From the NCBI GenBank assembly GCA_937896895.1, contig CALBNV010000078.1, positions 1,408 through 65,407 on the forward strand: a stretch of DNA of 64,000 bases, read 5' to 3'. The notes below the pieces were generated by a model. It had not been told where the DNA came from and searched no databases. It was given only the letters and a program-made list of their open reading frames with translations. This DNA is from an uncultured Bacteroidales bacterium (GTDB lineage Bacteria > Bacteroidota > Bacteroidia > Bacteroidales > F082). This document shows positions 12,650 to 48,556 of this stretch, piece after piece; position 1 is the stretch's first letter, and each line of letters starts with the position of its first letter. Position numbers and translations under genes: made by a program.

Positions 12650-12654
12650 CTGAT

Positions 12655-27450: not shown

Positions 27451-27503
27451 AAGCCGAAACTTGTCCAAAATGCCTAAAAAAACGCAAGTTTGGACAGGTT
27501 TTG
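27451..27503. repeat. 53-bp repeat element, copy B
   Basis: AAGCCGAAACTTGTCCAAAATGCCTAAAAAAACGCAAGTTTGGACAGGTTTTG, a direct repeat of 25873-25925. Confidence 0.9.
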
Positions 27504-27845
27504 CCGGATTGGATTATGTCATGAATGTAAATTTAATTGAAAAATCCGGTTTGTTTTTGTTTTGTCTTGATAAAAATTCATGTATTTGCCGTGTCATACT
27601 GAAAATATGACAAAACATATATAAAAGCGTTTTGCTTTATTTCTTCTGCTTGAAAATTTGGCGATTTAAAAGTAAATGAAGAAAAATAAGTAAGATGTTC
27701 ATGCTTTGTGCGTGAGCTTTACTTGTTTCTGTATTAACTGGGTCACGCCAAATACCTCAAGCAGCGGAAACGAGTTGAGTTTCACGCTTTTTTTGTGCTT
27801 TGTCGGAAACAAGATGACAAAATACTGAAGCAAAAACTTTGTGAT

Positions 27846-28223
27846 ATGTCAACGTCAAACGAACGTATCATCTTGAACATCGGGAAGAGAATGGTTAAGG
27901 TTGCCGTGCATGAAATCCTGTATGTTGTCTGCGAAGACTACATCTGTTCTTTGACTGTGTCAGACGGTAGGACATATCAGGTTTCACGTTCATTGCAGTC
28001 TGTCCATGAGGAGTTGGACGGTTGTGGATTTCAGTACATCAGCCGAGATGTGCTGGTAAACATGCACCATGTAGTGGAGCTTCAGCGCACATCTGCCAGA
28101 AAATGGTGCGCCAAAATGAGCGACGGAAGCGTGTTTTTCGTTGCTTCGAGGCGGCAGAAAGGCTTCATGGAGGCATTTCTGACTACACGTTCACGAGCGA
28201 ATACGACACGCTCACGTGAGTAA
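27846..28223 (+). CDS. stand-alone LytTR-domain DNA-binding protein (no receiver domain)
   Basis: 125 aa from ATG 27846. The LytTR pattern is VAVHEILYVVCEDYICSLTVSDGRTYQVSRSLQSVHEEL...FQYISRDVLVNMHHV. The track start at 27795 is a GTG. Confidence 0.75.
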   Translation: MSTSNERIILNIGKRMVKVAVHEILYVVCEDYICSLTVSDGRTYQVSRSLQSVHEELDGCGFQYISRDVLVNMHHVVELQRTSARKWCAKMSDGSVFFVASRRQKGFMEAFLTTRSRANTTRSRE

Positions 28224-28237
28224 ACCTACACGCTCAC
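28185..28237 (+). promoter_or_regulatory. three phased 10-bp direct repeats (ACACGTTCAC, ACACGCTCAC, ACACGCTCAC): candidate LytTR operator
   Basis: Repeats sit at 28185-28194, 28206-28215 and 28228-28237, in 21/22-bp phasing. The last two are separated by a 12-bp spacer. The same pair recurs at 37256-37287. Confidence 0.55.
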
Positions 28238-28606
28238 GAAAAATAATGACACAGTTGTATTTTGTCGATTGAAAACATTTATTTTTGGGGAAGTAAGATT
28301 CGCAGACAATATTTTTTGAATGTCGCTGTTAGTAACATGTTATTTGCAGTCTCATTCAGAATGTGGTTGGTAAAAACGTAAACATGAATGAAATTTGCAA
28401 AATAATAACCTTGACAAACATCTGGAGGCTCGGGAAAAACAACTTCAGCAGGTTGGTGCCTCGTCGGATGGATGATGCAGAGATGCTCTCTGACGACGTT
28501 CCTGATTTGTTGGCAGGCAGTGATCGGGAAACCAGAGATGGCAGGCAAAAGGCAGCCAATAATTAAAATTATACATAAAAATTGTCGAAATAATAAATTT
28601 GGAAAT

Positions 28607-28855
28607 ATGAAAAAAGACAAATTGATTCAAGAGTTTGAAAACTTGAAAATTGAAAATGCCAATAGCTTTGTTGGTGGTAAACATAATGAAAACTTTTGCG
28701 ATCGTGAAATATATGCATGGACCGCTGATCCCAACGGACCAGCAGGAAATGGGCAAATGGATCCAACTGGCAGATACCAACAGGTGTTCGATTTGGACCC
28801 CACAACCAATGATACAATTGTAGGAGACACAATTTCAAACCGTCCCAGGTGGTAA
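28607..28855 (+). CDS. RiPP precursor peptide with double-glycine leader
   Basis: 82 aa. The leader is MKKDKLIQEFENLKIENANSFVGG, with hydrophobic residues at -4, -12 and -15. The 58-aa core is rich in Asp and Thr. The cognate C39-ABC exporter and maturases lie downstream. Confidence 0.75.
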   Translation: MKKDKLIQEFENLKIENANSFVGGKHNENFCDREIYAWTADPNGPAGNGQMDPTGRYQQVFDLDPTTNDTIVGDTISNRPRW

Positions 28856-28870
28856 TTTTAATTTTTACGA

Positions 28871-28900
28871 TTGCGTTGGGCGATATTTCGCCCAACGCAA
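28871..28900 (+). terminator. perfect 12-bp stem-loop just after the precursor gene (attenuator or transcript-stabilising hairpin)
   Basis: TTGCGTTGGGCG-ATATTT-CGCCCAACGCAA starts 16 nt after the precursor stop codon. Only TTT follows, so it is probably a leaky terminator. Confidence 0.5.
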
Positions 28901-28918
28901 TTTGACAGATACTCCACC

Positions 28919-30493
28919 ATGAAAAAAGTAAGCATATTCGTTTATCTGTTTGTAAGTTTTTCTTTCGTTTGGGCGCAGTATCCAAACGATGGTTTGTATT
29001 ACAAAGCAAACATGGCTTATTGGACGCGCGATGATTCGGTAACCTATGCGCTTTATTCCAAGTTAGATTCCATCGAGCCAATTGATAGTTTTTACGACTT
29101 GTGGAACTATTATTTTGCTTCCGAGATGATGGAAGACTCGTTGAAAAGCAAAGAATTGTTGTTCCGTCTGGTCGCAAAAGGTTTGGACAAAGGCGGAGTC
29201 GAGCAGGCTTTTTTACATGACATCGGATTGCATAAGCGTTCCTATTGGACCGAACTGGATTCCGTAATCAGCATCGCGGAGAGCAAAAGATGCCAGCCTT
29301 TCATTGATTCATTAGCGACGATGAGGGAAATTGACCAAGCCGTCAGGCAAAAACCATGGACGGACGAAAACAGAAGAAAAATGAGGGTCATTGATTCAAT
29401 TAACACTGTTAAACTCGAGTTGCTGATAGCACAATATGGTTTCCCGACATGGGAACTTGTCGGCCGCGACGGTGCTGAAAACGCATGGCTTATCGCTCAG
29501 CATTCTGCAACGCTCTTGCCTTGGTATTTGAAACACTACAGACAAGCCGTGCAGGAAAACAATGCTGATATTCACTGTTTAGCACTTATGGAAGACAGAT
29601 TTCTAATGCATCAAGGCCGTCCTCAGATCTATGGTACTCAATTAAGTTTTAGCGATTCTGCGGTTGGATTTCACCCAATAGCCGATGTGAAGCATGTCAA
29701 TGAACGCAGGTTTGCTGTTGGTTGGTGCCCCATTGAGAAGATTGCAAAAAGCCATGTTGGGGTTGATTCGGTTTTGATTTTCGCTGGAGATCTGGATTAT
29801 TCAAATAATTATTATCCAAGTATTGTGAATTTGTATACTTCCCAACCAACTGATGAAAACGTTACGAGGAATTTTGTAATTGAGAAAACCACGATGTATT
29901 GTTTCCCATGCGATTTGGAAGCGTTTTCCTGTCATTTGTTTGAGATTGAGAAAGACACTGCAAGGGCGGTAATCCAAGCCAAAAAGATTGTACTATGTGG
30001 AAGGCGCATTGATGAGGAATGGAATTTACCCCAATTGTTGATGGATTCGGTAAGAGCAAATTACACCGAACTTCGTGCCGATTATGAAAGGATGATAACC
30101 AGGGATGACGACATGATGCTTAATGCGATAACTTTTTTCGACACGCTTGTCAAGGTTTTGGAAAGTGGTTCTTATCCTCGTTACACCATCGATGCGTGGA
30201 ATGGAAACATCAAAAAACTTATTTCAACCAAGTCAAAAACATTGACAAAGAATGACTACGGTGCCTTTTTCGAATGGCTGTACAATCAAGTCGCTGTCGG
30301 TAACTATCATCTTTTCGACTACGCGGAATTGTATGATGAAGTGTATCATCGCCTATATGGGAAATCGTATTACGGGCAGAAACGTTTCGAGAAAAAAGTA
30401 CGGATATATAAACCGAAGAATGTTGATGAGCGCCGCGCTGGAATAATGCTTCCGAGTTTGGAAATGTGGGAAAGAACAATGGAAATGTTGTGA
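28919..30493 (+). CDS. secreted hypothetical protein (524 aa) embedded in the RiPP cluster; central region DUF6624-like (tentative)
   Basis: Signal peptide MKKVSIFVYLFVSFSFVWAQ from ATG 28919. The track start at 28871 is a TTG inside the hairpin. The segment IDQAVRQ...QYGFPTWELVGRDGAENAWLIAQHS...YGTQ resembles a Bacteroidota DUF family, from memory. Confidence 0.6.
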   Translation: MKKVSIFVYLFVSFSFVWAQYPNDGLYYKANMAYWTRDDSVTYALYSKLDSIEPIDSFYDLWNYYFASEMMEDSLKSKELLFRLVAKGLDKGGVEQAFLHDIGLHKRSYWTELDSVISIAESKRCQPFIDSLATMREIDQAVRQKPWTDENRRKMRVIDSINTVKLELLIAQYGFPTWELVGRDGAENAWLIAQHSATLLPWYLKHYRQAVQENNADIHCLALMEDRFLMHQGRPQIYGTQLSFSDSAVGFHPIADVKHVNERRFAVGWCPIEKIAKSHVGVDSVLIFAGDLDYSNNYYPSIVNLYTSQPTDENVTRNFVIEKTTMYCFPCDLEAFSCHLFEIEKDTARAVIQAKKIVLCGRRIDEEWNLPQLLMDSVRANYTELRADYERMITRDDDMMLNAITFFDTLVKVLESGSYPRYTIDAWNGNIKKLISTKSKTLTKNDYGAFFEWLYNQVAVGNYHLFDYAELYDEVYHRLYGKSYYGQKRFEKKVRIYKPKNVDERRAGIMLPSLEMWERTMEML

Positions 30494-30527
30494 AAAATGA
30501 TGGATGTTAATTTGATGCGTTAAAGAT

Positions 30528-31475
30528 ATGGTAGTAGTGTTTTCCATAAATGAAGATAATTCTACAGAAGATGTGGTTGATTGGTTTGACCATTATGGAG
30601 AGAACTTTTATCGCATAAATAATATAGATGATATAAATTCTTTTATAGAAAAACATCAAATGTTATTGATTCCTGAAACGGAAAATGCAGTGACTTCGGT
30701 ATGGTATCGAAAATCTCCCTCAAAGTCTTTGACAACAAATGTCTTCAACAATCCAAATACTGACAGAAGTGTTAGATTGTTTGCTTATTCTGAGCAAAAT
30801 GGCTTGTTTGAATCACTGTTCTCTTTGCTTGGAGAGAAGAAATGGCTAAACCATTGGTCGAATAGTTCTCCTGCAAAATTCCATCAATTGTTACTGGCAT
30901 CAAAATGTGGATTGAATGTCCCTGCTACGTATGTTACGAATTCCAAAGAACAATTATTGGATTTCATGTCACACCATGCCAGCATGATTGTTAAGCCTAT
31001 ACAAGATGTCGAATCCATTGAATTAGATGGGAAACGTTATTTTCAATACACAAAGGTACTTCACCGGGAAGATATTAACAGATTAAATAATACATTTTTT
31101 CCTGGCTTATTCCAAAAGGAAATTAAAAAGAATCTGGAAATCAGATCTTTCTATTTGGATGGCAAATTATATAGTATGGCGATATGCTCTTCATTTGACA
31201 GGCAAACTCAAATGGATTTTCGCCGATATAATGACAAATATCCCAATAGGACTATTCCATACCAATTACCAAAAGAAATCGAAAAGAAGTTGAACATCTT
31301 TATGGAGGAAATGAACTTAAACTGTGGCTCCATAGACTTGATATTGGATGATTCTGGAGATTACTATTTTTTGGAAGTAAACCCAGTTGGTCAATTCGGA
31401 ATGGTATCCTATCCATGCAATTATTATTTGGAAAGAAAAATAGCAAACTTTTTAATTCAATCAAATAATGAATAA
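30528..31475 (+). CDS. ATP-grasp peptide maturase (grasp-with-spasm/microviridin-type ligase family)
   Basis: 315 aa. The N-terminus MVVVFSINEDNSTEDVVDWF is typical of RiPP ATP-grasp ligases. ATP-grasp motifs are NLEIRSFYLDGK, DFRRYN and YYFLEVNPVGQFG. Confidence 0.8.
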   Translation: MVVVFSINEDNSTEDVVDWFDHYGENFYRINNIDDINSFIEKHQMLLIPETENAVTSVWYRKSPSKSLTTNVFNNPNTDRSVRLFAYSEQNGLFESLFSLLGEKKWLNHWSNSSPAKFHQLLLASKCGLNVPATYVTNSKEQLLDFMSHHASMIVKPIQDVESIELDGKRYFQYTKVLHREDINRLNNTFFPGLFQKEIKKNLEIRSFYLDGKLYSMAICSSFDRQTQMDFRRYNDKYPNRTIPYQLPKEIEKKLNIFMEEMNLNCGSIDLILDDSGDYYFLEVNPVGQFGMVSYPCNYYLERKIANFLIQSNNE

Positions 31476-31609
31476 ATCGTTTAAGGAAATTGTATATAAA
31501 AACAGGCTGCCCATCACTCTTTTGTTTATGGAAAATGTTGTTACAGAGAACACAAAACCATATATTTCCATAACCATTGATTATAAGAATGGTAAAAAAA
31601 TGATCGCTC

Positions 31610-32770
31610 ATGATTTTTACAAGCATATATCAACGTATTAAAGAAAACAAGCCGTTGTATTTCCGCTTTTGGGCGAATTGCATCTTGGTAAAGGGCTACA
31701 AGAACGGCATCCTGTTTGATTTGCAAAGAGGACGAAGCGTGAATGTCTCGCGTCTCTTTTGCGAAACATACGAACGCTATAAAGGCGAATGCATCAGTTC
31801 TGTTTTTAAAGATGAAAACTTTGATGAAAGGAAAGGCTATGTTAAAATGCTCGATTTCTTTATCAAAAACGACTTCGGAATCCTGACAGATGACGTAAAT
31901 ACACTTCCTGATTTGTCAATGGAATATGACTCCCCTTTCTGGGCCACCAACGTCATCTTGGAGACAGACAGCGATGCCGACCCAGGTTTTATGCTTGATG
32001 TCATTGAAAAACTATCTCAAGGGCATGTCCAAGCCGTACAGATTAACGACTGCGGCCATATTACAGTTCAACAACTTAGAAGGATAGGGGAAATCACAAT
32101 CAACAGCCAACTTCATTACATCAACATATACACAAATTACAGAACAGCATATTCCCAAAAACAATTGAATTTCATATATAGGAACAACCGTTTTCGTAAC
32201 ATTATTTTTATGGGAGCTCCGAGAGAACGAGATTTCAACAATGAAGAAATGGGGTTGGCTAATATCGCTTACATGAAGAAGGTGATAGATTTTAAATGTT
32301 GTGGAAATGTCAGAAAAGATCTGTTTGTTTTCAATCAACCATTTTTCATCGAAGCTCACTCCTGCAACACATGTCTGAACCGCAAAATAAGTATTGATAA
32401 AAACGGGGTGATAAAAAATTGTACATTAATGGAGAATGGATTCGGCAATATACAGGACTATTCGGTCAGAGAGATTGTAGATTTGCCTGGTTTTCAAAAT
32501 TTGTGGAATCTTTCGAAAGACGAAATTGATGTTTGCAAAGATTGTGAATACAGATATATTTGCACTGATTGCCGCCATTTCATCAAAGACAAAGAAAACA
32601 TCAAGTCCCAACCATCAAAATGCAAATACAACCCATACATCGGTAAGTGGGAGGGGGAAAATGGCTATGTTTCTGTAGAAGAATGTGGTAAATATTTACA
32701 AAACACAGGGTATATTCCTAATGAAGATATAATATGTGAATTAAATAAAAGAATCGAAAATACTCAATGA
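31610..32770 (+). CDS. SPASM-domain peptide maturase lacking the radical-SAM CxxxCxxC motif
   Basis: 386 aa. The C-terminal Cys pattern is CNTCLNRKISIDKNGVIKNC ... CKDCEYRYICTDC ... C, which is SPASM-like. There is no CxxxCxxC anywhere in the protein. The stop overlaps the ABC gene start (ATGA). Confidence 0.75.
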   Translation: MIFTSIYQRIKENKPLYFRFWANCILVKGYKNGILFDLQRGRSVNVSRLFCETYERYKGECISSVFKDENFDERKGYVKMLDFFIKNDFGILTDDVNTLPDLSMEYDSPFWATNVILETDSDADPGFMLDVIEKLSQGHVQAVQINDCGHITVQQLRRIGEITINSQLHYINIYTNYRTAYSQKQLNFIYRNNRFRNIIFMGAPRERDFNNEEMGLANIAYMKKVIDFKCCGNVRKDLFVFNQPFFIEAHSCNTCLNRKISIDKNGVIKNCTLMENGFGNIQDYSVREIVDLPGFQNLWNLSKDEIDVCKDCEYRYICTDCRHFIKDKENIKSQPSKCKYNPYIGKWEGENGYVSVEECGKYLQNTGYIPNEDIICELNKRIENTQ

Positions 32771-34953
32771 GTTTCCCTTTTCCTTTCTTCCCTCAACTCG
32801 ACGCCATGGACTGCGGGCCGGCTTGCCTCCGCATGATAGCGAAATATTATGGCCGTCATTATACCCTCGAAGGGCTGAGGCAACGCTGCCACATCAGCCG
32901 CGAGGGGGTGAGCCTGCTCGGGATAAGCAGCGCCGCCGAGGAGATAGGGTTCAAGACCATTGGCGTACACCTGCCGTTCAGCCAGCTAAAAGACGAAGTG
33001 CCGCTGCCGTGCATCGTCCATTGGCGACAAAACCATTTCGTGGTGGTGTATAAGATAAAGCGCGGAACGGTGTATGTGGCAGACCCCGCATCAGGGCTGC
33101 TGAAATATTCCGAAAAGGAATTTTTAGACGGATGGATAAGCCGGCACGACAACGGCAACGAAGGCATAGCACTGCTGCTCGAGCCGCAACCCGACTTCTA
33201 CGCCGAAGAAGGCGAGAAACCCGACAAGGCAAAGTTCTCGTTCATACTCAAATACCTGAAACCTTACAGGAAACTCATCGCGCAGCTGTTCATGGGAATG
33301 ATAATGGGCACGCTGCTGCAGCTCATATTCCCGTTCTTCACCCAGAGCATCGTTGACTATGGCATCGGCAACAGCAACCTGAGTTTCGTCACGCTGATAC
33401 TCGTGGCGCAGCTCACCCTATACGTCGCACAGACCGCCGTGGAGTTCATCCGCTCGTGGATATTGCTGCACATAAGCACGCGTATAAACATCAGCATCAT
33501 ATCCGACTTCCTGATAAAACTGATGAAACTGCCGATAGGCTTCTTCGACACCAAGATGATAGGCGACCTCATGCAGCGCATCGGCGACCACCAGCGCATC
33601 GAGTCATTCCTCACCTCATCGACACTCAACACGCTGTTCTCGTTCGTCACGTTCATCGTGTTCGCAGTGATACTCGCTTTTTACAGCATAAAACTGCTTG
33701 TCGTGTTCCTGATCGGCAGCACACTCTATGTCATCTGGGTCTTGATATTCCTGAAATATCGCCGCGAACTCGACTACAAGCGTTTCTCACAGGCGTCGGC
33801 GGAACAGAGCAATCTCATACAGATGATAACAGGAATGCAGGAGATTAAGCTCAACAACTGCGAGAAACAGAAACGCTGGGAATGGGAGAACATCCAGGCC
33901 AAACTCTTCAAGGTGAGCGTCAGTAGCCTGAAACTCAGCCAGTGGCAGCAGAGCGGCGCGGTGTTCATCAACGAGACGAAGAACATCTTGATTTCTTATA
34001 TCTCCGCAAGGGCGGTGATACAGGGCGACATGAGCCTCGGCATGATGATGGCAGTGCAGACCATCGTCGGACAGCTCAACTCGCCGATAAGCCAGATGAT
34101 CGGTTTCATACAGAGCGCACAGGATGCAAAGATAAGCCTCGAACGTCTCGGCGAGATACACAACAAGAAAGACGAGACGGAAGATGGCGACGGCCGCACC
34201 TCGATATTCACCGACGACAGAGGCATCGGCATTGAGAGCCTCACTTTCCATTACGACCCATTGTCGGACGCGGTGCTCAACGACGTGAACCTCACCACTC
34301 CTGAAGGGAAGGTGACAGCCATCGTGGGCATGAGCGGAAGCGGCAAGACGACGTTGGTGAAGCTGCTGCTCGGCTTCTACCCGCCGACAGGCGGAAGCAT
34401 CCGCGTCGGCGGAATAAACATGAAGAACATCGACCCGAAGGCATGGCGCGACCGCTGCGGAACGGTTATGCAGGAAGGCTTCATCTTCTCCGACAGCATC
34501 GCAAAGAACATAGCTATCGGCGAAGACCACATCGACGAGCGACGGCTGCTCCACGCCGCGAAAGTGGCGAACATACAAGACATGATAGAGAGCCTGCCTC
34601 TCGGCTACAATACAAAAATCGGGCAGGAAGGCAACGGCATCTCGCAAGGCCAGAAACAGCGCATACTGATCGCCCGCGCAGTCTATAAAAACCCCGATTA
34701 TATCTTCCTCGACGAGGCGACTAACTCGCTCGACGCGAACAACGAGCGCGTCATCATGGACAACCTGCAGGAGTTTTTCAAGGGGAAGACGGTCGTTGTT
34801 GTGGCGCACCGACTGAGCACCGTCAAGAACGCCGACCAGATTGTCGTCATCAACCACGGAAAAATCACCGAGACGGGCACTCACGAGGAACTGACCGCAC
34901 GACGCGGCGAATACTACACTCTGGTTAAGAATCAACTTGAACTTGGAAAATGA
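32767..34953 (+). CDS. peptidase C39 domain-containing ABC transporter (bacteriocin/RiPP processing-export ATPase/permease)
   Basis: 728 aa. The N-terminal C39 domain has a catalytic Cys (QLDAMDCGPACL), His (NHFVVVY) and ADPASG. A 6-TM domain follows. Walker A is GMSGSGKTT, the signature is ISQGQKQR and Walker B is IFLDEATNSLD. Confidence 0.9.
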   Translation: MSFPFPFFPQLDAMDCGPACLRMIAKYYGRHYTLEGLRQRCHISREGVSLLGISSAAEEIGFKTIGVHLPFSQLKDEVPLPCIVHWRQNHFVVVYKIKRGTVYVADPASGLLKYSEKEFLDGWISRHDNGNEGIALLLEPQPDFYAEEGEKPDKAKFSFILKYLKPYRKLIAQLFMGMIMGTLLQLIFPFFTQSIVDYGIGNSNLSFVTLILVAQLTLYVAQTAVEFIRSWILLHISTRINISIISDFLIKLMKLPIGFFDTKMIGDLMQRIGDHQRIESFLTSSTLNTLFSFVTFIVFAVILAFYSIKLLVVFLIGSTLYVIWVLIFLKYRRELDYKRFSQASAEQSNLIQMITGMQEIKLNNCEKQKRWEWENIQAKLFKVSVSSLKLSQWQQSGAVFINETKNILISYISARAVIQGDMSLGMMMAVQTIVGQLNSPISQMIGFIQSAQDAKISLERLGEIHNKKDETEDGDGRTSIFTDDRGIGIESLTFHYDPLSDAVLNDVNLTTPEGKVTAIVGMSGSGKTTLVKLLLGFYPPTGGSIRVGGINMKNIDPKAWRDRCGTVMQEGFIFSDSIAKNIAIGEDHIDERRLLHAAKVANIQDMIESLPLGYNTKIGQEGNGISQGQKQRILIARAVYKNPDYIFLDEATNSLDANNERVIMDNLQEFFKGKTVVVVAHRLSTVKNADQIVVINHGKITETGTHEELTARRGEYYTLVKNQLELGK

Positions 34954-36275
34954 GCGACGAAATAATTGATAACAAAAGCGAAAGCTCCGAGCAGCACCTC
35001 AAAGGTCTCAACATCCACAGCGAGCAGGTCCAGGACATCATGGGGCGTCCTCCGGGATGGTTGGTGAGGTGCGGAATTTCAATCATTTTGCTGGTGATTG
35101 TGCTGTTGCTCGTTGGCAGCGCGTTCGTCAAATATCCTGAAGTGCTGACGGCGGCGATAAAAATCAACGCCTACAACCTGCCGGCGCAGGTGAAGGCACG
35201 CAGCACCGGGCGCATCGACACTCTGTTTGTCAGGGAAGGCGACACAGTTAATGCAGGTGCTCCGCTGGCTCTGATTGAGAATCCTGCAAAATATGAAGAT
35301 GTCATTTTCCTGAAAGAAAACATGGCTTCAGTGGCGCACGACTCGGCGTGGCATTGTGACAGACCGCTCCAGCTCGGCGAGGTGCAGAACAGTTATCTGT
35401 CGTATGTCCAGGCGGTTAATGCCTTGACGTTCTTTGTCGGGAACGACTATCTCGGCGAGATGATAGCGTCGAAGAGAAAACAGATTGACGTCATGTCGAA
35501 GACGCTGAATAACTACAAACGGCAGTCGAGGATTGGGGCAGAGCAACTGTCGGTGGCGAAAGAGAAATTCGCCGTTGACTCCACATTGTTCAAAAAAGGA
35601 GTGATATCAAAAGTCAATTTCAGCGAGAGCAGGAATGTTTTTCTCCAGCAGCGTATGGCATATCAGTCGATGCTCATCGAGACTGACAACATGAGGCTGA
35701 GTCTGCTGCAAGCCGAACAGTCGGTGACGGAGCTGGAACAGAGCCGCAGTGAGCAACACAACGACCTTTCACTACAGCTTGAAATAGCGAGAGGACAGCT
35801 TGAGGCAAGCATCAGGCAATGGGAACAAAGCTGTCTTCTCGTGAGTCCGGCAAGAGGGACTATTGCGCTGACGATGTTCTGGCAACGGAACCAGAACATC
35901 ACCGCAGGTGAGACGATGCTCGCCGTGGTGCCCGTTGAAAGGTCATCATATTTCGGCAAGATTTATCTTTCTCAACAGGGAGCCGGCAAGGTTAAAACAG
36001 GGCAGAACGTGAATATCAAACTTGATGATTATCCGTATATGGAGTTCGGTTTCGTGCAGGTCGGGCTGTCGAAGATGTCGCTGATGCCATACGAGGACGC
36101 CTCCGCCGGCAATATATACGTCATGGAGGTTGAACTTCCCGACAGCCTTGTCACACAATATGGAAAGTTCATCCCGTATCGTCCGGAGATGTCAGGCACA
36201 GCGGAAATCATCACGGAAGACATGTCGGTCCTTGTGAGATTGATAAACCCGATTCGGGCGGTGCTGAGGAGGTGA
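34950..36275 (+). CDS. HlyD family secretion adaptor protein
   Basis: 441 aa with an N-terminal TM (GISIILLVIVLLLVGSAF), a long coiled coil and a C-terminal beta domain. It has an ATGA overlap with the ABC gene. Confidence 0.85.
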   Translation: MSDEIIDNKSESSEQHLKGLNIHSEQVQDIMGRPPGWLVRCGISIILLVIVLLLVGSAFVKYPEVLTAAIKINAYNLPAQVKARSTGRIDTLFVREGDTVNAGAPLALIENPAKYEDVIFLKENMASVAHDSAWHCDRPLQLGEVQNSYLSYVQAVNALTFFVGNDYLGEMIASKRKQIDVMSKTLNNYKRQSRIGAEQLSVAKEKFAVDSTLFKKGVISKVNFSESRNVFLQQRMAYQSMLIETDNMRLSLLQAEQSVTELEQSRSEQHNDLSLQLEIARGQLEASIRQWEQSCLLVSPARGTIALTMFWQRNQNITAGETMLAVVPVERSSYFGKIYLSQQGAGKVKTGQNVNIKLDDYPYMEFGFVQVGLSKMSLMPYEDASAGNIYVMEVELPDSLVTQYGKFIPYRPEMSGTAEIITEDMSVLVRLINPIRAVLRR

Positions 36276-36523: not shown

Positions 36524-37174
36524 ATGGAAACAAAACTTTTTGATGACGAGAAATACATTGATAACTCGTTGGATTACAACTTAGTAAGTGATATTTTGGA
36601 TTTTTTGGCGTACATGATGACCCCGCAGTCGAAAAGTTCTATCGCAAGTAACATCAGGTACATAAACTATTCATATAAGAAGGTCGTAGTTGACAAGCAT
36701 GTCGATTATTGTATTGAGAACAATCTCCTCATATCGAAAAGGAAAATTTACAACGGCAGGGACGAGACAAATGTCTTTTTTTTGCCCGTGTCAGCGCAGC
36801 TTGACAGGCTTTATGACATTTCCAAAGATGCCCAAAGGCTGAAAAAAGTCAGCAGATACAAGAACTTGCAATATTTTTCGATTTATGGCTTGTCCGACCT
36901 TCGTGATGCGATTTTCAGTTATTTCAACGGCAAAATTACGTATTTGTACAGACTTGCTGAAAACCCCCAATGTGATGAGTATGTCAAGGCGATGTTTTAT
37001 GATGAGAGGTATTTCGGTTTTTTAAGCAGGCTTGCCCATAAGCAGACACGATGCGACAATCTTTTGCTTCTTACCGACCATGAATATGATGATATAGACG
37101 AAGACGGCGTTCAAATTCAAATAAGGCCGGTGTATGAATGGAGTGCGGAGTTTTTCAGTGAAAAGCCACATTGA
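36524..37174 (+). CDS. hypothetical protein
   Basis: 216-aa ORF with its own -7 box. No TM or signal peptide, and no recognisable family. Confidence 0.55.
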   Translation: METKLFDDEKYIDNSLDYNLVSDILDFLAYMMTPQSKSSIASNIRYINYSYKKVVVDKHVDYCIENNLLISKRKIYNGRDETNVFFLPVSAQLDRLYDISKDAQRLKKVSRYKNLQYFSIYGLSDLRDAIFSYFNGKITYLYRLAENPQCDEYVKAMFYDERYFGFLSRLAHKQTRCDNLLLLTDHEYDDIDEDGVQIQIRPVYEWSAEFFSEKPH

Positions 37175-37255: not shown

Positions 37256-37287
37256 ACACGCTCACAGGCATGAACTTACACGCTCAC
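37256..37287 (+). promoter_or_regulatory. second copy of the ACACGCTCAC-N12-ACACGCTCAC direct-repeat element (candidate LytTR operator)
   Basis: Identical 10-mers at 37256-37265 and 37278-37287. The flanking sequence is also similar to 28201-28290. It lies about 115 bp upstream of ATG 37403. Confidence 0.55.
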
Positions 37288-37402
37288 AAGAAATAATGAC
37301 AAGGATGTAAATTGTTGATTTAAAATAAATACCTTCGCAACAGCAAACTGAAATAATTTAAAAGAGCCAACGTTATGAGTGGCGTAAACAAATTTTTTAA
37401 TT

Positions 37403-38707
37403 ATGAGACATGTCCTTTCTTTATGGTTTGTCTTGCTAACTTGCAGTGTGTTTTCGCAAAATAGCAACGTGTTGAATGTCAGTGTAATGGTGGCTGATTC
37501 AACTGGAAAGGCAATAAAAGACGTAGCCATATACAACTCAAAACAAAAAGTCATTGGTATTACCGACAGTTACGGAACTGCCACAATATCTGTAAATTAT
37601 GGTGATTTTGTGGCATTTTCGCATATCAGTTTCGAAACGTTAAGGGTAAGCGTTTCCGACAAGAGCAACATGCTCATCATCATGAATGAAAAGAAGAACA
37701 TGTTACCTGAAGTTGAAATTGTTGAAAACACGCCTCATCTGGCATATAACAACAAGGACGTTTGGATTGTCGATTACACCGTCGGCGAAGAAGGAATCTT
37801 TGCCATTACCACCACTGGAAGAAATTCGCATCTGTTACATCTCGGATTTGAACAAGACACGTTGTCAAAAAAGGAAATAAGCACCAAATACGAGCACATC
37901 ACACGAGATGTCTTCGGGAACATCCATCTGATTGGTCCTGACTCAACTTATCAAGTGTATTCCGACAGACAAACAATGCATCTTTTGTACGGTGCGACTT
38001 TGGGGAAATACAATGAAACCTTCGCGCCGATTGCCACACTGACAGACAGCATTCTCGTGACAAAGAAATCGTTTTACGACGGACAGGAGATTGCGTTTTT
38101 TAAAGTAAATCTTAACAATAAGAAAAGCGTGTTTCTTTGCGATGTTTATAGCGAGGCCAAAGAAATGGCGAAAAATTGGAACAGAGACAATGTAAGACTA
38201 CAACGTATTCTGAATTCCGACTTGGAACTCTTTTACAGCCCGATTGAACGACCAGAACACCGAGCGGAAATCAAGGAGAACATGCTTAAACGCCTTATGT
38301 TAAAAGAAATTTACGCACCAGTATTTAACATTGAAAATCACGTCTTTATCTTTGATTTTAACAAAAACGCCATCTATAAATATAACAAAGTCGGGGATTA
38401 TGAAGACAGAATTGAAATTGTATTTCATAGAGGTTTTCGTAACAGCATCGAAAAAAAATGGTGCAACAACATCATTTTCGACACATCGAGGCAGGAATGC
38501 TATGCACAGTTTTTGGAAGACGGTATTGTGACATTAAAAAAAATTGACCTAAAAAATGGCAATGTGATTGGTACCTATATACTTGATGCTCACGTTTTTC
38601 CGACAAACATTCAAGTTTATGATGGCGTTGTTTATTATCAATTCATTGATGTCCGTCAAACTTACGGACAAGATTGCAGAAGTTTATACAAAATGACTTT
38701 AAAATGA
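37403..38707 (+). CDS. secreted hypothetical protein with N-terminal carboxypeptidase-regulatory-like domain
   Basis: 434 aa with signal peptide MRHVLSLWFVLLTCSVFSQ. The CarboxypepD_reg-like segment is NVSVMVADSTGKAIKDVAIYNSKQKVIGITDSYGTATI. The remainder is unknown. Confidence 0.6.
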   Translation: MRHVLSLWFVLLTCSVFSQNSNVLNVSVMVADSTGKAIKDVAIYNSKQKVIGITDSYGTATISVNYGDFVAFSHISFETLRVSVSDKSNMLIIMNEKKNMLPEVEIVENTPHLAYNNKDVWIVDYTVGEEGIFAITTTGRNSHLLHLGFEQDTLSKKEISTKYEHITRDVFGNIHLIGPDSTYQVYSDRQTMHLLYGATLGKYNETFAPIATLTDSILVTKKSFYDGQEIAFFKVNLNNKKSVFLCDVYSEAKEMAKNWNRDNVRLQRILNSDLELFYSPIERPEHRAEIKENMLKRLMLKEIYAPVFNIENHVFIFDFNKNAIYKYNKVGDYEDRIEIVFHRGFRNSIEKKWCNNIIFDTSRQECYAQFLEDGIVTLKKIDLKNGNVIGTYILDAHVFPTNIQVYDGVVYYQFIDVRQTYGQDCRSLYKMTLK

Positions 38708-38869: not shown

Positions 38870-40723
38870 ATGAAAAGACACTTACTTGCAATCATTGCCA
38901 TCATGATGATGGCATTCAACGCAAAAGCCCAGACAAGCGGACAATGCGGCGATAACCTTACGTGGAATTTTGACTCGTCAACAGGAACACTGACAATTAG
39001 TGGGACAGGTGACATGTGGGATGGTGTCTGTCCGTGGTGGGACTATTACCACCAGGTGACAGATTTAGTAATTGGCAACTCGGTAACATCAACAGGTGCC
39101 GGAGCGTTCGCAAATCATCCAAATTTGACAAACGTTACTTTGGGTAATTCTTTGATCAGTATTGGCGAATGTTCTTTTATGGGTTGCACAAAAATGCTAT
39201 CAGTTGAAATTCCAAATTCAGTGTTGTCAATTGGTGACGAGGCGTTTTGTGCATGTTATCAGTTGTGCGATGTAACTATCGGAAATTCAGTTACTTATAT
39301 AGGCGAATCGGCGTTTGAAAGCAGTGGTATCACTTCGATTGTTATTCCTGATTCTGTAGTTACTTTGGGTGGTAGTGTTTTTCACCAATGTAGAGATTTG
39401 GAATCGGTTGTTATCGGGGATTCTGTGATTGCCATACCGGAAAATGCTTTCGGAATGTGTTACAAGTTAAAATCTGTAACAATTGGAAACTCTGTTGTGT
39501 CTATTGGTGGTTATGCTTTCCTTTGGTGCATGGAATTGGAGAACGTGACACTGGGCAACTCTTTGGAAGCTATTGGTGAAATGGCTTTTAGTGAGTGTAT
39601 CAATCTGAAAAACATCGAATTTCCAAATTCATTGAAAACGATAGGTCAAGAGGCGTTTGATGGTGTTGAATTAGAAAGTCTTACATTTGGAAATTCGTTG
39701 GTTTACATAGGAAGACAAGCGTTTTATAACAATTCCCAACTACAATCATTGACGTTTCAGAACTCGCCGTGTACTATAGCAAAAAGTGCTTTTTCATCTT
39801 GTTATGCATTGCAATCTGTCGAATTTGGGAATGCAATAGAAAGCATCGACACGTTGGCATTTTCAGGTTGCCCTATCAGATTGTTGGAGCTGCCGAACTC
39901 GTTGGTACATTTGGGCGACAGGGCATTCAGCGGTAACGATGAGTTGAGAAAAGTCACAATTCCAGCATCTCTTACATCACTTGAAGGCAATGTTTTCACT
40001 TTTTGCCATTATCTTGAGGAAATCATTGTCGATGCAAACAATCCGAAATACGACAGTCGTGATAATTGCAACGCAATAATTGAAACCGAAACGAATACGT
40101 TGATAACGGGTTGCAGAGCCACGTCTTTACCATATTCCGTAGAGGTTATTGGTCGGGAGGCTTTCGCCGGAGCGGGGATGCTCACGTCAATAGATATTGT
40201 CGGACAAGTCAACACTATTGGAGAATATGCCTTCCGTGATTGTACATATTTATCGGATGTCATAATAGGAGATCATGTTGAAACTATTGGCAGTCGAGCG
40301 TTTTATTCAGACTACAATATCAGAGAGATCAGTTGCCATGCGGTGATTCCGCCTGTTTGCGCTGACGATGTTTTTGAACAGGAAGTCGAAGTGTTGGCGA
40401 ATCTTTATGTCCCGAATGGCTGCAAGGAAGCGTATGAAACCTCGCCCAAGTGGATGAATTTCCTGAATATCATCGAACGCGCTGTCGATGTCAATGAAAC
40501 ATCTTTATCCGCTGTTTCCATCAGTCCAAATCCCGCTTCGGATTTCATCAACATTACCTGTGAAAACATGAAATCAATCGAAATCTTGTCGTTGGAAGGA
40601 AAAATCATCAAGAATACGATGGTTTCAGGCAACATAACACAGATTGACATCAGCGATTTAAACAGTGGGGTTTATATTTGCAGAATCGATGGTGACAAAA
40701 TTTGGAAAATCATTAAGAAATAG
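38870..40723 (+). CDS. leucine-rich repeat (BspA-like) surface protein with T9SS C-terminal sorting domain
   Basis: 617 aa with a signal peptide. It has many repeats of about 23 aa (IGNSVTSIGxxAFxxCxxL) and a C-terminal ISPNPASDFINI...GVYICRIDGDKIWKIIKK. Confidence 0.85.
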   Translation: MKRHLLAIIAIMMMAFNAKAQTSGQCGDNLTWNFDSSTGTLTISGTGDMWDGVCPWWDYYHQVTDLVIGNSVTSTGAGAFANHPNLTNVTLGNSLISIGECSFMGCTKMLSVEIPNSVLSIGDEAFCACYQLCDVTIGNSVTYIGESAFESSGITSIVIPDSVVTLGGSVFHQCRDLESVVIGDSVIAIPENAFGMCYKLKSVTIGNSVVSIGGYAFLWCMELENVTLGNSLEAIGEMAFSECINLKNIEFPNSLKTIGQEAFDGVELESLTFGNSLVYIGRQAFYNNSQLQSLTFQNSPCTIAKSAFSSCYALQSVEFGNAIESIDTLAFSGCPIRLLELPNSLVHLGDRAFSGNDELRKVTIPASLTSLEGNVFTFCHYLEEIIVDANNPKYDSRDNCNAIIETETNTLITGCRATSLPYSVEVIGREAFAGAGMLTSIDIVGQVNTIGEYAFRDCTYLSDVIIGDHVETIGSRAFYSDYNIREISCHAVIPPVCADDVFEQEVEVLANLYVPNGCKEAYETSPKWMNFLNIIERAVDVNETSLSAVSISPNPASDFINITCENMKSIEILSLEGKIIKNTMVSGNITQIDISDLNSGVYICRIDGDKIWKIIKK

Positions 40724-41571: not shown

Positions 41572-42855
41572 TTAATCTTTCAAGCAGCCGATAGGGACAA
41601 CGAGAACGCCATCGGGACGACGGTAGGCGTATGAGCCGACGCCGGTTAAGACCATCATGAATGACGGCTGCGGCATTTTCGTCGTGTCGATTTTGTCGGC
41701 CATTTTCTTGAGCGTCGCCGCCGCTTTTTCGATGTTGTCCAAGCCGCCGAGTTTGATCTCAATCAGGGCATACGAGCCGTTGCGTCGGTGAAGTACCGCA
41801 TCGCATTCAAGGCCTTTCGAGTCGCGGTAATGGAAGATTTTCCCGTCCATGGCATCGGCGTATGTGCGCAGGTCGCGGACTGCCATCGTCTCGAAGAACA
41901 ATCCGAAGCTGCAAAGGTCATTCAAAAGGTCATCGGGGCTTATGCCGAGTGCTGCGGTGGCGATGCTCGGGTCCGTAAAATACCGTGTGTCAGTGCTTTG
42001 TATAGCAATCTTACTTCTTAGATTCGGATTCCATGCGGGCATGTCCTCAATCACAAAAATCTTCCTCAGCGCACCGACATAGTCGGAAATCGTCTCCGAT
42101 GAAATTGATTTGTTGTCATTGTCGATTATCTCGGCGTTCATCTTCTCGAAACTTATTGACGAGCCTTGGTTGCGGGCGTATGACCTGAGAAGCAGACGTG
42201 CACGTTCGCTGCTGCGTCTGATGTTATCAACTCTGTGAATGTCAACATTGTAAATTGCGTCGAAATAATCAAACGCTTCGTCAAGGGCTGCGTTTTTCCT
42301 CAGCAATGTCGATTTCGGCCATCCGCCGCGGCATATAAGAAATGCCAGCTGTTCGATGTTGATGTCGTTTGACGGCGTGCCGAAATCGACCCCGTTGAAG
42401 AGGTCGCTGAGGCTGACGCTTCCCGACGACTCCTCCGATTCCCACAGGCTCATGGTTCTCATCTTGAGCCGTCCTATTCGGCCTGTCCCGCTGTGTATCA
42501 ACGAATCCTGCTCCGGCGGCACGCTGCTTCCCGTCAGGATGAAATGCCCTTCGCCTTGACGCTCGTCAACCTCCGACCTGACCATGTCCCACAGCGGAGT
42601 CATCGTCTGCCACTCGTCAATCAACCTCGGCGTGTCGCCTTCAAGCAACTTCTTCGGCTGCATCTGGAAATCCTGTTGCGCCTCCTTTAAAACAGTAATG
42701 TCGCCCAAATTGAGGATGCTTCCCGCAACTTGTTTGGCGGTCGTAGTCTTGCCGCACCACTTAGGACCCTCAATCAAAATCGCACCTTTCCCTTCAAGCC
42801 TCCGCCGTAGCATATAGTCGGCAATCCTTTGCTTGTATTTTACTTCTTTTGACAT
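41572..42855 (-). CDS. AAA-type ATP-binding protein with DUF4143-like C-terminal domain
   Basis: 427 aa with Walker A GPKWCGKTT. The C-terminal region has the ECDAVL...IEIK pattern typical of this orphan ATPase family. A TATCTTTG -7 box lies at the complement of 42883-42890. Confidence 0.75.
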   Translation of the reverse strand: MSKEVKYKQRIADYMLRRRLEGKGAILIEGPKWCGKTTTAKQVAGSILNLGDITVLKEAQQDFQMQPKKLLEGDTPRLIDEWQTMTPLWDMVRSEVDERQGEGHFILTGSSVPPEQDSLIHSGTGRIGRLKMRTMSLWESEESSGSVSLSDLFNGVDFGTPSNDINIEQLAFLICRGGWPKSTLLRKNAALDEAFDYFDAIYNVDIHRVDNIRRSSERARLLLRSYARNQGSSISFEKMNAEIIDNDNKSISSETISDYVGALRKIFVIEDMPAWNPNLRSKIAIQSTDTRYFTDPSIATAALGISPDDLLNDLCSFGLFFETMAVRDLRTYADAMDGKIFHYRDSKGLECDAVLHRRNGSYALIEIKLGGLDNIEKAAATLKKMADKIDTTKMPQPSFMMVLTGVGSYAYRRPDGVLVVPIGCLKD

Positions 42856-42916: not shown

Positions 42917-43100
42917 TTCCGACATTTTTTCTAAAATTTTTCCGACACTTTTCCCAAAGTTATTCCGATACTTTTTCCAAAGTTATTCCGATACTTTTTC
43001 CAAAGTTATTCCGATACTTTTCCCAAAGTTATTCCGATACTTTTCCCAAAGTTATTCCGACACTTTTTCCAAAGTTATTCCGATACTTTTTCCAAAATAT
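42917..43100. repeat. tandem array of 8 x 23-bp units (consensus TTCCGATACTTTTTCCAAAGTTA)
   Basis: Units start at 42917, 42940, 42963, 42986, 43009, 43032, 43055 and 43078, with exact 23-bp phasing. The first and last units are degenerate. Internal variation is limited to GAT/GAC and TTTTTCC/TTTTCCC. Confidence 0.95.
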
Positions 43101-43555: not shown

Positions 43556-44482
43556 ATGTTAAAAAATTTTAAATCACTACTTTTGATTGCTGTAATTGCA
43601 CTCACATTTGCTTCTTGCGAAGATGAAAGAAATACTGTGAGTTATTGGGAAACTGACGAGGCCTGGTTTCAGACCGGAAAGGAAATCGATGAAAACTTTG
43701 TCGATGCCTTTTATATTGTTTCCACAAATGTCATGCGCTCTTTTGATTCTTTGGGGAAGGAACATTATACGGCGGTTCTGGACGAAAACGAAAGAAAGAC
43801 CTTGGCGATTGAAATGGAATTTGTCCAAAAGACAATTTTCCCCGATTCGATAAATTACTATTCGCCTTATTATCATCAGTTTACGATGAGTACCTTGGCG
43901 TTGTCTCAAGATGATTTCGAGGTGATTTATGACAGTGTGAAAAATGAAGTCTTCGACGCGTTCGATTATTATATGCGGACATGGAATAACGGCCGACGTT
44001 TTGTGATAATCGGCTTCAGCCAGGGTGCGATGATGACAAAGGAACTCCTGAAATATATTGACAGTGAACAATATAGCCGTCTTGTTGCGGCATACGTGAT
44101 TGGAAACGGAATAAGTGAAGAGGATTTGGAATGCGAACATATTGTCCCTGCGGAATCGGCGTCAGACACCGGCGTCACAATCTCGTTCAACTCGGTGGAA
44201 AGTCCCGACGGCATCTGGACGCCTGTCTATGAAAACTCCGTAACATGCATAAATCCAATAAATTGGACCACCGACGCAACTCCGGCCGATTTCAGTTTCG
44301 GCGGGCAGAATGTTACAGCAACGGTTGACACCGTCTTGAATGTCGTGATAGTTGAGGATTTTGAAAAACCGGAACTGCCATTCACAGAGGTATGGCCGGA
44401 AGACTGTCTGCATTTCTATGACATACAGTTTTATAATAACTCATTGAGAGAGAACGTCTTATTAAGAGCCTACAAACGTTAA
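43556..44482 (+). CDS. lipoprotein, alpha/beta-hydrolase-like (DUF3089-like, tentative)
   Basis: 308 aa with a lipobox (LTFASC) and nucleophile elbow GFSQG. Confidence 0.5.
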   Translation: MLKNFKSLLLIAVIALTFASCEDERNTVSYWETDEAWFQTGKEIDENFVDAFYIVSTNVMRSFDSLGKEHYTAVLDENERKTLAIEMEFVQKTIFPDSINYYSPYYHQFTMSTLALSQDDFEVIYDSVKNEVFDAFDYYMRTWNNGRRFVIIGFSQGAMMTKELLKYIDSEQYSRLVAAYVIGNGISEEDLECEHIVPAESASDTGVTISFNSVESPDGIWTPVYENSVTCINPINWTTDATPADFSFGGQNVTATVDTVLNVVIVEDFEKPELPFTEVWPEDCLHFYDIQFYNNSLRENVLLRAYKR

Positions 44483-48348: not shown

Positions 48349-48435
48349 GCCCAGGTGGTGAAATTGGTAGACACGCTACTTTGAGGGGGTAGTGACGAAT
48401 GCGTCATGCAAGTTCGACTCTTGTCCTGGGCACCA
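48349..48435 (+). tRNA. tRNA-Leu (anticodon GAG), CCA encoded
   Basis: Folded by hand. The acceptor stem is GCCCAGG/CCTGGGC and the D-arm is GTG-AAATTGGTAGA-CAC. The anticodon stem CTACT/GGTAG carries loop TTGAGGG. It has a long variable arm and T-loop TTCGACT. Confidence 0.85.
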
Positions 48436-48461
48436 ACGGAATCCAAGAAATTCCACCCAAA

Positions 48462-48545
48462 GCCCATGTGGTGAAATTGGTAAACACGCTACATTCAGGG
48501 TGTAGTGAGCGGACGCTCTTGGAAGTTCGAGTCTTCTCATGGGCA
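48462..48545 (+). tRNA. tRNA-Leu (anticodon CAG)
   Basis: The acceptor stem is GCCCATG/CATGGGC. The anticodon stem CTACA/TGTAG carries loop TTCAGGG. It has a long variable arm and T-loop TTCGAGT. Confidence 0.85.
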
Positions 48546-48556
48546 CAGAAACAGAA

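Follow-up and report, generated by a model that had tools for sequence, protein, structure and literature searches.

A probable grasp-with-SPASM graspetide gene cluster, variable between strains, in a gut Bacteroidales bacterium

What would a gut bacterium make with an ATP-grasp ligase and a SPASM-domain protein that are encoded side by side, and is everything in place to make it? The question is raised by a locus in a stretch of 64,000 nucleotides (the window, positions 1,408 to 65,407 of contig CALBNV010000078.1) from an uncultured Bacteroidales bacterium. A first-pass annotation had singled out five genes there, for a precursor peptide, an ATP-grasp ligase, a SPASM protein, an ATP-binding cassette (ABC) exporter and an adaptor, and all five are found where it had placed them in the list of open reading frames (ORFs; Table 1). 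We think that the locus is probably an intact and functional grasp-with-SPASM graspetide gene cluster, carried as a strain-variable accessory by a gut Bacteroidales bacterium related to Candidatus Limimorpha, and the product would be expected to be a secreted peptide containing rings. What we observed is the gene content, the protein families, the purifying selection on every gene, the pattern of leader and core, the C39 domain and the domain make-up of the SPASM protein.

SPASM was reportedly introduced by Haft and Basu in 2011, and the grasp-with-SPASM system is said to have been predicted in silico over a decade ago. It is the 'branch 5' of Makarova et al. 2022 (PMC8939145), with 190 loci surveyed. 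For the window, membership rests on curated models together with synteny. The ATP-grasp protein scores 293.4 bits against TIGR04192, 'grasp-with-spasm system ATP-grasp peptide maturase' (cutoff 230, E 2e-87, positions 1-318 of the 318 in the profile), and the SPASM protein scores 263.4 bits against the curated NCBIfam model TIGR04193 (cutoff 175, E 4e-78). Both maturases thus exceed the curated cutoffs, which is the check that the first-pass annotation had proposed for its family assignment. The two genes adjoin each other on the same strand, and the gap of 135 nt between them is bridged by an overlapping ORF of 57 amino acids (aa). The ATP-grasp protein has the DFR motif and the ATP- and Mg-binding residues of a graspetide ligase; D230 and R232 (DFR) and E283 and N285 (EVNP) are invariant among 46 ATP-grasp homologues, and the motifs read earlier in the 315-aa protein (NLEIRSFYLDGK, DFRRYN and FLEVNPVGQFG) are present. 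It also matches the models for the MvdC, MvdD and SAV_5884 maturases.

The precursor likewise has what is found in graspetide substrates, a leader and a core that holds conserved Thr and Asp. The leader, MKKDKLIQEFENLKIENANSFVGG, was proposed from the start to be of the double-glycine (GG) type, and the GG at residues 23-24 is indeed conserved across the precursor family. The family alignment has ten members and takes in the peptides of two related loci, L006 and L008 (related loci on other contigs are numbered with an L); M1, K2, K3, K5, L6, E9, I15, A18, G23 and G24 are invariant in it. Counted back from the GG, leader positions -4, -7, -12 and -15 are F, A, L and F, a spacing of hydrophobic residues that is expected of double-glycine leaders. 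The core is variable except for the invariant T39, D62, D69 and T70 and the nearly invariant D52, and no cysteine is conserved in the alignment. A full HMMER search of 1.84 billion representative proteins yielded seven small peptides of the same kind; two longer proteins from the same pass look like RCC1-type repeats and are probably chance matches. A reading of the precursor ORF as 127 aa (from 28472) was rejected, since all ten aligned members begin with MKK. In the more distant locus L010 the gene call begins three codons earlier.

The export genes agree with such a precursor. The exporter has the domains of a peptidase-containing ABC transporter (PF03412 with E 5e-37, PF00664 and PF00005), and the C39 peptidase domain is intact, as had been claimed for the 728-aa protein, with its Cys in MDCGPACL and its His in NHFVVV. 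It scores below the cutoffs of the specific NCBIfam equivalogs, for instance 452 bits against TIGR01193, whose cutoff is 524. The ATGA overlaps noted earlier are real at the junctions between the SPASM and ABC genes and between the ABC and HlyD genes. The cluster had also been called complete, and in this the first-pass annotation was only partly right: the parts it listed are there, but it overlooked the DUF6624 gene, the gene for the 57-aa LPL-family protein, the LytTR regulator with its repeats and the hairpin after the precursor gene, and no outer-membrane factor is included.

Table 1. Features of the grasp-with-SPASM locus and its surroundings, with positions in the window
Feature	Position	Strand	Basis
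Stand-alone LytTR DNA-binding regulator	27846..28223	+	Pfam LytTR E 1.6e-12
Three direct repeats ACACG(C/T)TCACG (ACACGCTCACG repeats), 21-22 nt spacing; candidate LytTR operator	28185..28238	+	repeat search
Non-coding leader region, conserved, holding two motifs of the Bacteroidota -7 type (TATTTTTG at 28280, TAAATTTG at 28594)	28239..28606	+	motif matches
Precursor peptide, 82 aa (24-aa double-glycine leader, 58-aa core)	28607..28855	+	ORF list, family alignment
Hairpin with 15-bp stem between precursor and downstream genes; candidate attenuator or stabiliser	28869..28902	+	folding
Exported DUF6624 protein, 524 aa, signal peptide ending VWA/Q (cleavage at the slash)	28919..30493	+	Pfam DUF6624 E 5.8e-27
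Graspetide-type ATP-grasp ligase (GwsG), 315 aa	30528..31475	+	TIGR04192, DFR/EVNP
'LPL-family' small protein, 57 aa	31468..31641	+	conserved motifs, position, dN/dS 0.09
SPASM-domain protein (GwsS), 386 aa: RRE-like domain, degenerate barrel, SPASM domain	31610..32770	+	TIGR04193, alignment, AlphaFold2 model
C39 peptidase-containing ABC exporter, 728 aa	32767..34953	+	Peptidase_C39, ABC_membrane, ABC_tran
HlyD-type periplasmic adaptor, 441 aa	34950..36275	+	TIGR01843 E 6e-32 (below cutoff), HlyD_3
Second repeat pair (ACACGCTCACA twice, 22 nt apart)	37256..37288	+	repeat comparison
Exported 434-aa protein with SusC-type N-terminal domain	37403..38707	+	weak SusC/RagA N-terminal matches

Is the locus still in use? 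Only five metagenome contigs encode the exact ATP-grasp protein. With its single sequence as query nothing was found in the species genomes; a scan of 185,579 species genomes with the ATP-grasp alignment gave 396 relatives, the best of them 49% identical. These are mostly from Bacteroidota, with a few metagenome-assembled genomes (MAGs) labelled Kiritimatiellae, Acidobacteriota and Gammaproteobacteria. Such rarity, and the lack of an outer-membrane factor, could be taken as signs of an inactive remnant, an explanation that is very hard to reconcile with the state of the genes and to which we give next to no weight. All reading frames are intact, and copies that are 100% identical come from independent samples; L002 matches the window at 100% identity for 11.4 kb. 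The ratio of nonsynonymous to synonymous substitution rates (dN/dS) against the allele of L004 is 0.22 for the precursor, 0.17 for DUF6624, 0.15 for the ligase, 0.09 each for the LPL, SPASM and HlyD genes and 0.03 for the ABC gene; against this diverged allele it stays within 0.03-0.27 for every gene, which means purifying selection.

The gene order is also kept among the relatives. Where the ATP-grasp protein is 56-88% identical, a precursor of 79-82 aa is followed by DUF6624 (about 525 aa), ATP-grasp, the small ORF, SPASM, C39-ABC and HlyD; in the 60% relative L006 the biosynthetic genes are the same and an outer-membrane factor replaces the exporter. Loci with 47-50% ATP-grasp identity carry a short DUF6624 protein of 303 aa, and a Kordia locus at 41% has none. 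Neighbourhoods were counted in the 54 related loci with 3 kb or more of flanking sequence on each side. In every one of them the ATP-grasp gene is directly followed by the SPASM gene, and a C39 domain was found in 29 and HlyD in 21.

The first-pass annotation went on to expect a doubly modified peptide, and for this we find no support, as the SPASM protein is without a radical-SAM cluster motif (SAM, S-adenosylmethionine) and the precursor family without a conserved cysteine. The SPASM-like array that it had seen at the C-terminus is there, in the form of eight conserved SPASM-type cysteines: in an alignment of 60 homologues C255, C271, C309, C312, C318, C321 and C338 are invariant and C231 is conserved in at least 90%. 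They form Gx4C and CxxCx5CxxC patterns and could ligate two [4Fe-4S] clusters, and TIGR04085 and PF13186 match the protein just under their cutoffs. Between residues 37 and 231 the same alignment holds no invariant column. None of the full-length proteins among 123 homologues has a motif of CxxxCxxC type in the first 230 residues, the sole match being the SPASM motif of a 228-aa fragment; the Pfam Radical_SAM family (PF04055) is found neither on the 120 homologues listed nor on the window protein, and there is no real ORF with a radical-SAM motif, as a possible partner, in the whole 64-kb window. Judged by its sequence, the SPASM protein is not a radical-SAM enzyme, and because of this a second chemical modification is unproven. 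The absence of the motif from these alignments contradicts the label 'radical SAM enzyme' that is used in PMC8939145.

The predicted structure points to where the protein may have come from. In the AlphaFold2 model residues 17-93 form three to four strands, three helices and one further strand, residues 112-221 form four beta-alpha units, and the SPASM region begins at about residue 243. The top matches of the whole model in the Protein Data Bank (PDB) according to Foldseek are SuiB and CteB (probability 1.0, more than 400 columns), followed by SkfB, and the N-terminal domain matches the B1 proteins of lasso peptide pathways, 6jx3_B and 5v1v_A (probability 0.96-0.99), which are RREs, i.e. recognition elements for peptides that are made by ribosomes and modified after translation (RiPPs). 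A sequence profile search of the PDB gave a designed TIM-barrel-like protein as the only match, which is uninformative. The SPASM protein looks like a descendant of an RRE-radical SAM-SPASM maturase that has lost the cluster that cleaves SAM.

The main rival to this picture is a catalytic, SAM-independent role of the SPASM domain. The protein would then be a true second tailoring enzyme that uses its two auxiliary Fe-S clusters, either without SAM or with an unlinked radical-SAM partner, and the product would be doubly modified after all. A SPASM domain that catalyses a reaction by itself is not known to us. The concentration of invariant residues in that domain, with its eight conserved cysteines, is what an enzyme could show, but the barrel region then has no invariant residue at all, and the missing CxxxCxxC motif and Radical_SAM match in all of the 123 homologues, like the lack of a radical-SAM ORF in the window, speak against such an enzyme. 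That the SPASM gene stays with the ligase gene in all 54 loci, and that a modifying role is assumed in PMC8939145, speaks for a second enzyme; the lack of a conserved Cys in the precursors speaks against thioethers. On balance we hold a tailoring role to be unlikely, and we say the same of the redox modification (a cross-link, dehydrogenation or hydroxylation) that it could bring about. One relative has a different arrangement: in L010, whose ATP-grasp protein is 47% identical, a canonical radical SAM/SPASM gene (12409-13767, 452 aa, PF04055 and PF13186) lies about 900 nt downstream of the C39-ABC gene, and some grasp-with-SPASM loci therefore adjoin a true radical-SAM maturase, unlike the window.

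If the SPASM protein is not an enzyme, it could be a partner of the ligase, and the small LPL gene would belong to the same arrangement. This gene overlaps the stop of the ATP-grasp gene by 8 nt and the start of the SPASM gene by 32 nt. It encodes LPITLL and DFYKHIST, and in its relatives LP[ILV] recurs close to the N-terminus and [FY]YK[PH]IS close to the C-terminus. The motifs are kept in relatives whose ATP-grasp proteins are 41-88% identical, and the ORF is widely recurrent and is called as a gene on independent metagenome contigs. The LPL family has been placed at the matching position in branch-5 loci, directly upstream of the SPASM gene, and its motif is said to resemble the leader motif that activates other graspetide ligases (PMC8939145). 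The MirB ligase is inactive and insoluble without its co-occurring partner MirC (PMC13097080). The partner idea is drawn from these two likenesses, a ligase in need of a partner and a motif resembling a ligase-activating one. The LPL protein was also considered as a second precursor, which was rejected as it has no GG and is conserved where cores vary.

The gene for the exported DUF6624 protein sits between the precursor and ligase genes, at the same position in L001-L009. As the protein is exported it would act after the exporter, either on the product or by protecting the cell. The alignment has 23 invariant columns, mostly polar (among them D160, S161, N163, Q195, H196, D227, R228, Q237, Y239, Q242, R264 and R265). 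Its AlphaFold2 model is all-alpha, with a mean predicted local confidence (pLDDT) of 91 and a predicted TM-score (pTM) of 0.87. Foldseek gave no PDB fold match to it at E<=0.001; generic helical-repeat matches at E>0.01 were set aside, as no function can be read from the fold, and a profile search gave no PDB sequence match. DUF6624 is frequent in four other graspetide groups and has been called a possible undiscovered biosynthetic enzyme (PMC13097080), and an abundant secreted family with conserved His and Arg, 'cluster 23', is described for grasp-with-SPASM loci (PMC8939145); we infer that this family is DUF6624.

Immunity is the other role that has to be considered, with DUF6624 as a self-protection protein against a toxic product and not a biosynthetic enzyme. 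A gene immediately after the precursor gene, a signal peptide and a presence in only 15 of the 54 related loci are all in line with an accessory function of this kind. DUF6624 also diverges together with the precursor (86% and 80% aa identity to L004, respectively, against 98% for the exporter). The many invariant polar columns, on the other hand, resemble an active or binding site, and the enzyme suggestion in PMC13097080 points the same way. Self-protection is thus a serious alternative, to which we would nevertheless give somewhat less than an even chance.

How is the cluster controlled? The ORF of the stand-alone LytTR regulator opens at GTG 27795, and the likely start is the ATG that gives MSTSNE. 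The gene is in the same place in L001, L002 and L004, and in a relative with a 47% identical ATP-grasp protein a LytTR gene likewise adjoins the locus. The 3' half of the window gene diverges along with the biosynthetic genes, with 72% DNA identity to L004 against 98-99% in the flank. The direct repeats behind it number three in the window and L002, two in L004 and L005 and one in L001, where 43 nt are deleted. By analogy with the paired repeats that are known for LytTR regulators, these repeats may be bound by the regulator. The stretch of ~220 nt that leads up to the precursor gene (28385-28606) is by our count about 91% identical to the L004 allele, and it is thus more conserved than the 3' half of LytTR (72%) and the precursor core, though non-coding in L004. 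A 60-aa ORF at 28384-28566, called in L002 and L003, was rejected as a gene because a stop interrupts the L004 allele. A consensus fold of the 5' leader was made from two sequences only, which cannot show covariation, and a sigma-70 promoter scan did no better than with shuffled sequences, and that model is not applicable to Bacteroidota.

The hairpin that follows the precursor gene is exceptionally stable: the 81-nt fold that contains it has -33.2 kcal/mol and a z of -6.65, and none of 200 shuffles equalled it. Hairpins of unrelated sequence are found at the same position in L004, L006 and L008, so the position is kept and the sequence is not. No Rfam family was found in the 5' leader or around the hairpin, besides a sub-threshold chance match.

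A regulator with repeats of its own also raises the thought that the peptide is mainly a signal between cells, neither inhibitor nor antimicrobial, that feeds back via LytTR as in the ComC/BlpC-type circuits of Gram-positive bacteria. LytTR and its spaced repeats do lie directly upstream, the 3' half of the regulator gene diverges along with the precursor cassette, a second gene has the same repeats in front of it, and the alleles differ among strains like pherotypes. A sensor kinase is however missing, and so is a receiver domain in the LytTR protein; a heavily tailored core of 58 residues and an exported DUF6624 protein fit a bioactive product better, and all characterised graspetides are protease inhibitors (PMC8939145). 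A signal is for these reasons improbable.

The second gene just mentioned encodes the 434-aa protein. About 90 nt after the second repeat pair resemble the promoter-proximal sequence at 28206-28330, and a repeat pair precedes the 434-aa gene in L001 as well; the shared sequence suggests that the gene is probably co-regulated with the operon. It is not a core part, as it is absent from L004 and L005. In L001 the LytTR region is present a second time, as a partial, diverged copy just upstream of the 434-aa gene (15878-16485, with 89.5% and 69% identity to window 27482-28275). The duplicated operator of the window is thus probably what is left of a regulator-promoter module that had been duplicated. 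The surroundings of the module vary too. In the window the 216-aa ORF after HlyD (36524-37174) is the N-terminal fragment of a 1350-aa SNF2-family helicase, which is full length in L001 (from 18196 onward) and L005 (from 11451 onward); the similarity to the helicase stops at about 37053, and then follow the repeat module and the 434-aa gene. In L001 the module lies between HlyD and the intact helicase gene. As its location relative to the helicase differs, the module must have different insertion points among strains.

That the locus varies between strains is clear also from the biosynthetic genes. Between the window and L001, 4,714 consecutive bases are identical (28226-32939), and the remainder of the ABC gene differs by 3-7%. 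Compared with L004 the flanks are 98-99% identical, and the part from the 3' half of LytTR through the SPASM gene is 72-95% identical; synonymous divergence (dS) is 0.41-0.78 in the cassette, 0.28 in the ABC gene, 0.09 in HlyD and 0.02 in a flanking ATPase gene. The GC content at third codon positions is 0.33-0.45 from precursor to SPASM, 0.74 in the ABC gene and 0.65 in HlyD, with the step exactly at the ATGA junction and likewise in three related loci. From this mosaic of identity and the step in composition it follows that strains exchange the 3' half of the regulator together with operator, precursor and maturases as one unit, and that the low-GC biosynthetic cassette recombines apart from the more host-like transporter pair downstream of it. 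Exchange at the level of strains suggests diversifying pressure on the peptide, which would be expected of a molecule used in competition between gut strains.

The gut-type Bacteroidales background proposed in the first-pass annotation agrees with the flanking proteins, which cluster at 90% identity or more with proteins from MAGs of Bacteroidales, Candidatus Limimorpha caballi among them; gut samples of cattle, goat and yak are the source of several related loci. Among about 20 annotated genes of the window, a part of its ORFs, no genes of an integrative and conjugative element (ICE; tra, integrase) were seen. The annotated neighbours are acetyltransferases, a MerR regulator, an AAA ATPase, a BspA-type leucine-rich repeat protein, a HAD hydrolase and a subtilase. 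Secreted proteins with type IX secretion tails abound in the neighbourhood: the S8 subtilase (46555-48201), the BspA-type protein (38870-40723) and, in L001, a C10 peptidase (1-428). The secreted proteases near by may matter, as all characterised graspetides are protease inhibitors.

Some further observations concern the surroundings. At 42917-43096 a 23-nt unit (TTCCGATACTTTTTCCAAAGTTA, 92% matches) is repeated in tandem 7.8 times, each unit holding a Bacteroidota -7-type promoter motif, TAACTTTG, on the minus strand; the array lies in the intergenic space that separates a DUF4143 ATPase gene at 41572-42855 (minus strand) from a DUF3089 gene at 43556-44482. Two adjoining tRNA-Leu genes (GAG and CAG) lie at 48349-48546, about 12 kb downstream of the cluster, with no sign of an island boundary. 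L006 has a second and different peptide cluster directly upstream of its grasp-with-SPASM genes (454-5488), with a cysteine-rich GG-leader peptide of 71 aa (MKKLMNSKKFEDYKRNEIPAAWAVLGG...), three proteins without annotation (380, 320 and 372 aa), an ORF of 79 aa and a gene resembling HlyD.

Put together, the parts suggest the following course of events. The stand-alone LytTR regulator would act on the ACACGCTCACG repeats, spaced 21-22 nt apart, and drive transcription of the operon, and probably also that of the 434-aa gene behind the second repeat copy, and the hairpin after the precursor gene could keep precursor mRNA in excess of enzyme mRNA. In the cytoplasm the leader would be bound by the RRE-like N-terminal domain of the SPASM protein, and the ATP-grasp ligase, probably in complex with the LPL and SPASM proteins, would join Thr of the core (T39, T70) to Asp (D52, D62, D69) as macrolactones. 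The SPASM protein is here most likely an iron-sulfur-containing partner that binds the leader, and a second modification is less likely. The C39-ABC exporter would then cut after Gly24 and export the 58-residue core with the help of HlyD and of an outer-membrane factor presumably encoded elsewhere in the genome, and DUF6624 would act outside the cytoplasm, as a tailoring or processing enzyme or in self-protection. As every characterised graspetide inhibits proteases, a protease inhibitor is by analogy the most likely product. We searched the literature for the product, ring pattern or activity of any grasp-with-SPASM cluster and found no paper describing one, just as the first-pass annotation had supposed for characterised products. 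We hypothesize further that the SPASM pseudoenzyme and the LPL protein are obligatory for the ligase and that DUF6624 is a new extracytoplasmic RiPP-tailoring enzyme, in a cassette that is swapped between strains; this combination is tentative, and we would sooner expect one of its parts to fail than all to hold. If true, the pseudoenzyme partner together with DUF6624 would be a biosynthetic logic not yet seen in graspetides.

A number of points weigh against the reading that we prefer. We infer the ring pattern, the number of esters and the activity of the product, and our case for the SPASM protein as a partner is built on features that it lacks. Eight conserved cysteines are a heavy investment for a scaffold, and a catalytic redox role may be conceivable. 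The AlphaFold2 model of the protein is moderate (pLDDT 78, pTM 0.56), its TM-scores to SuiB and CteB are 0.2-0.3, and the matches to RREs with that domain only have E 0.06-0.13. The binding of LytTR to its repeats is an analogy, and a single-sequence search found no LytTR in the 54 distant loci. The operon has no gene for a TolC-type or other outer-membrane factor. Finally, the precursor matches none of the curated models for Bacteroidota GG precursors, a check that had been proposed together with the first claims: TIGR04139, TIGR04149 and PF14406 are unmatched, with no NCBIfam match at E<=10 and no relevant Pfam match at E<=5. Most branch-5 precursors also go unrecognised by curated models (PMC8939145), and a match to such a model is for that reason not a defining feature.

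To a RiPP specialist the cluster is unsurprising. Grasp-with-SPASM clusters are widespread in Bacteroidota, and the system probably corresponds to graspetide group 14 of the Mitchell lab, 2026 (PMC13097080). With the other grasp-with-SPASM systems of Bacteroidota it shares the two maturases above the model cutoffs, an LPL-type ORF upstream of the SPASM gene, a GG precursor further upstream, the C39-ABC exporter, HlyD, an exported uncharacterised protein and the kind of host. It differs from them in that the precursor belongs to a small family not covered by curated models, DUF6624 is the long two-domain form of 524 aa, the regulator is a stand-alone LytTR protein and not of the OmpR type noted by Makarova et al., and no outer-membrane protein is encoded beside it. 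In Porphyromonas gingivalis, gwsG and gwsS are found on ICEs (2026 preprint, bioRxiv 10.64898/2026.08.04.741601), whereas the window locus lies in a chromosomal accessory region with no ICE genes among its annotated neighbours.

The microviridin pathways with enzymes of the MvdC/MvdD family are related through a homologous ATP-grasp protein (TIGR04185, E 1e-48) with the DFR motif, and the same chemistry, esters between side chains of Thr/Ser and Asp/Glu on a precursor with a leader, is expected here from the genes. The distance is however considerable: the window ligase reaches 166 bits against an MvdC cutoff of 425, it is a single ligase, and the locus adds the SPASM, LPL and DUF6624 proteins. 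Microviridin leaders have the motif PFFARFL, and branch-5 leaders are without such an activating motif (PMC8939145). SuiB (5v1q) and CteB (5why) are the best full-length structural matches of the SPASM protein and have the same order of leader-binding domain, barrel and SPASM domain, with the cysteine sets for two auxiliary clusters. The window protein differs in having no CxxxCxxC motif, no invariant residues in the barrel and a sequence identity of 9-13%, and in functional terms it does not belong to the radical-SAM superfamily. In the rosaritide pathway (PMC13097080) MirB and MirC offer a parallel of another kind, a non-ligase protein that strictly co-occurs with the ligase and has an RRE-like N-terminal domain. 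MirC, though, is a SurA/PpiC-like chaperone of an actinomycete, with no iron-sulfur domain and no sequence relationship to the SPASM protein, whose own partner role is only suggested by this likeness.

As a compact and intact locus of a gut anaerobe with its accessory parts together, the cluster is a good test case for a SPASM domain without a radical-SAM domain, for the need of the ligase for the LPL and SPASM proteins and for the role of DUF6624. What is specific to it, compared with the known systems, is the unmodelled precursor family, the long DUF6624 protein, the LytTR regulator with its duplicated operator, the exchange of the cassette and a pseudo-radical-SAM SPASM protein with an RRE. 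These features refine the known picture and do not make a new category, the system being catalogued in at least two published genome-mining surveys.

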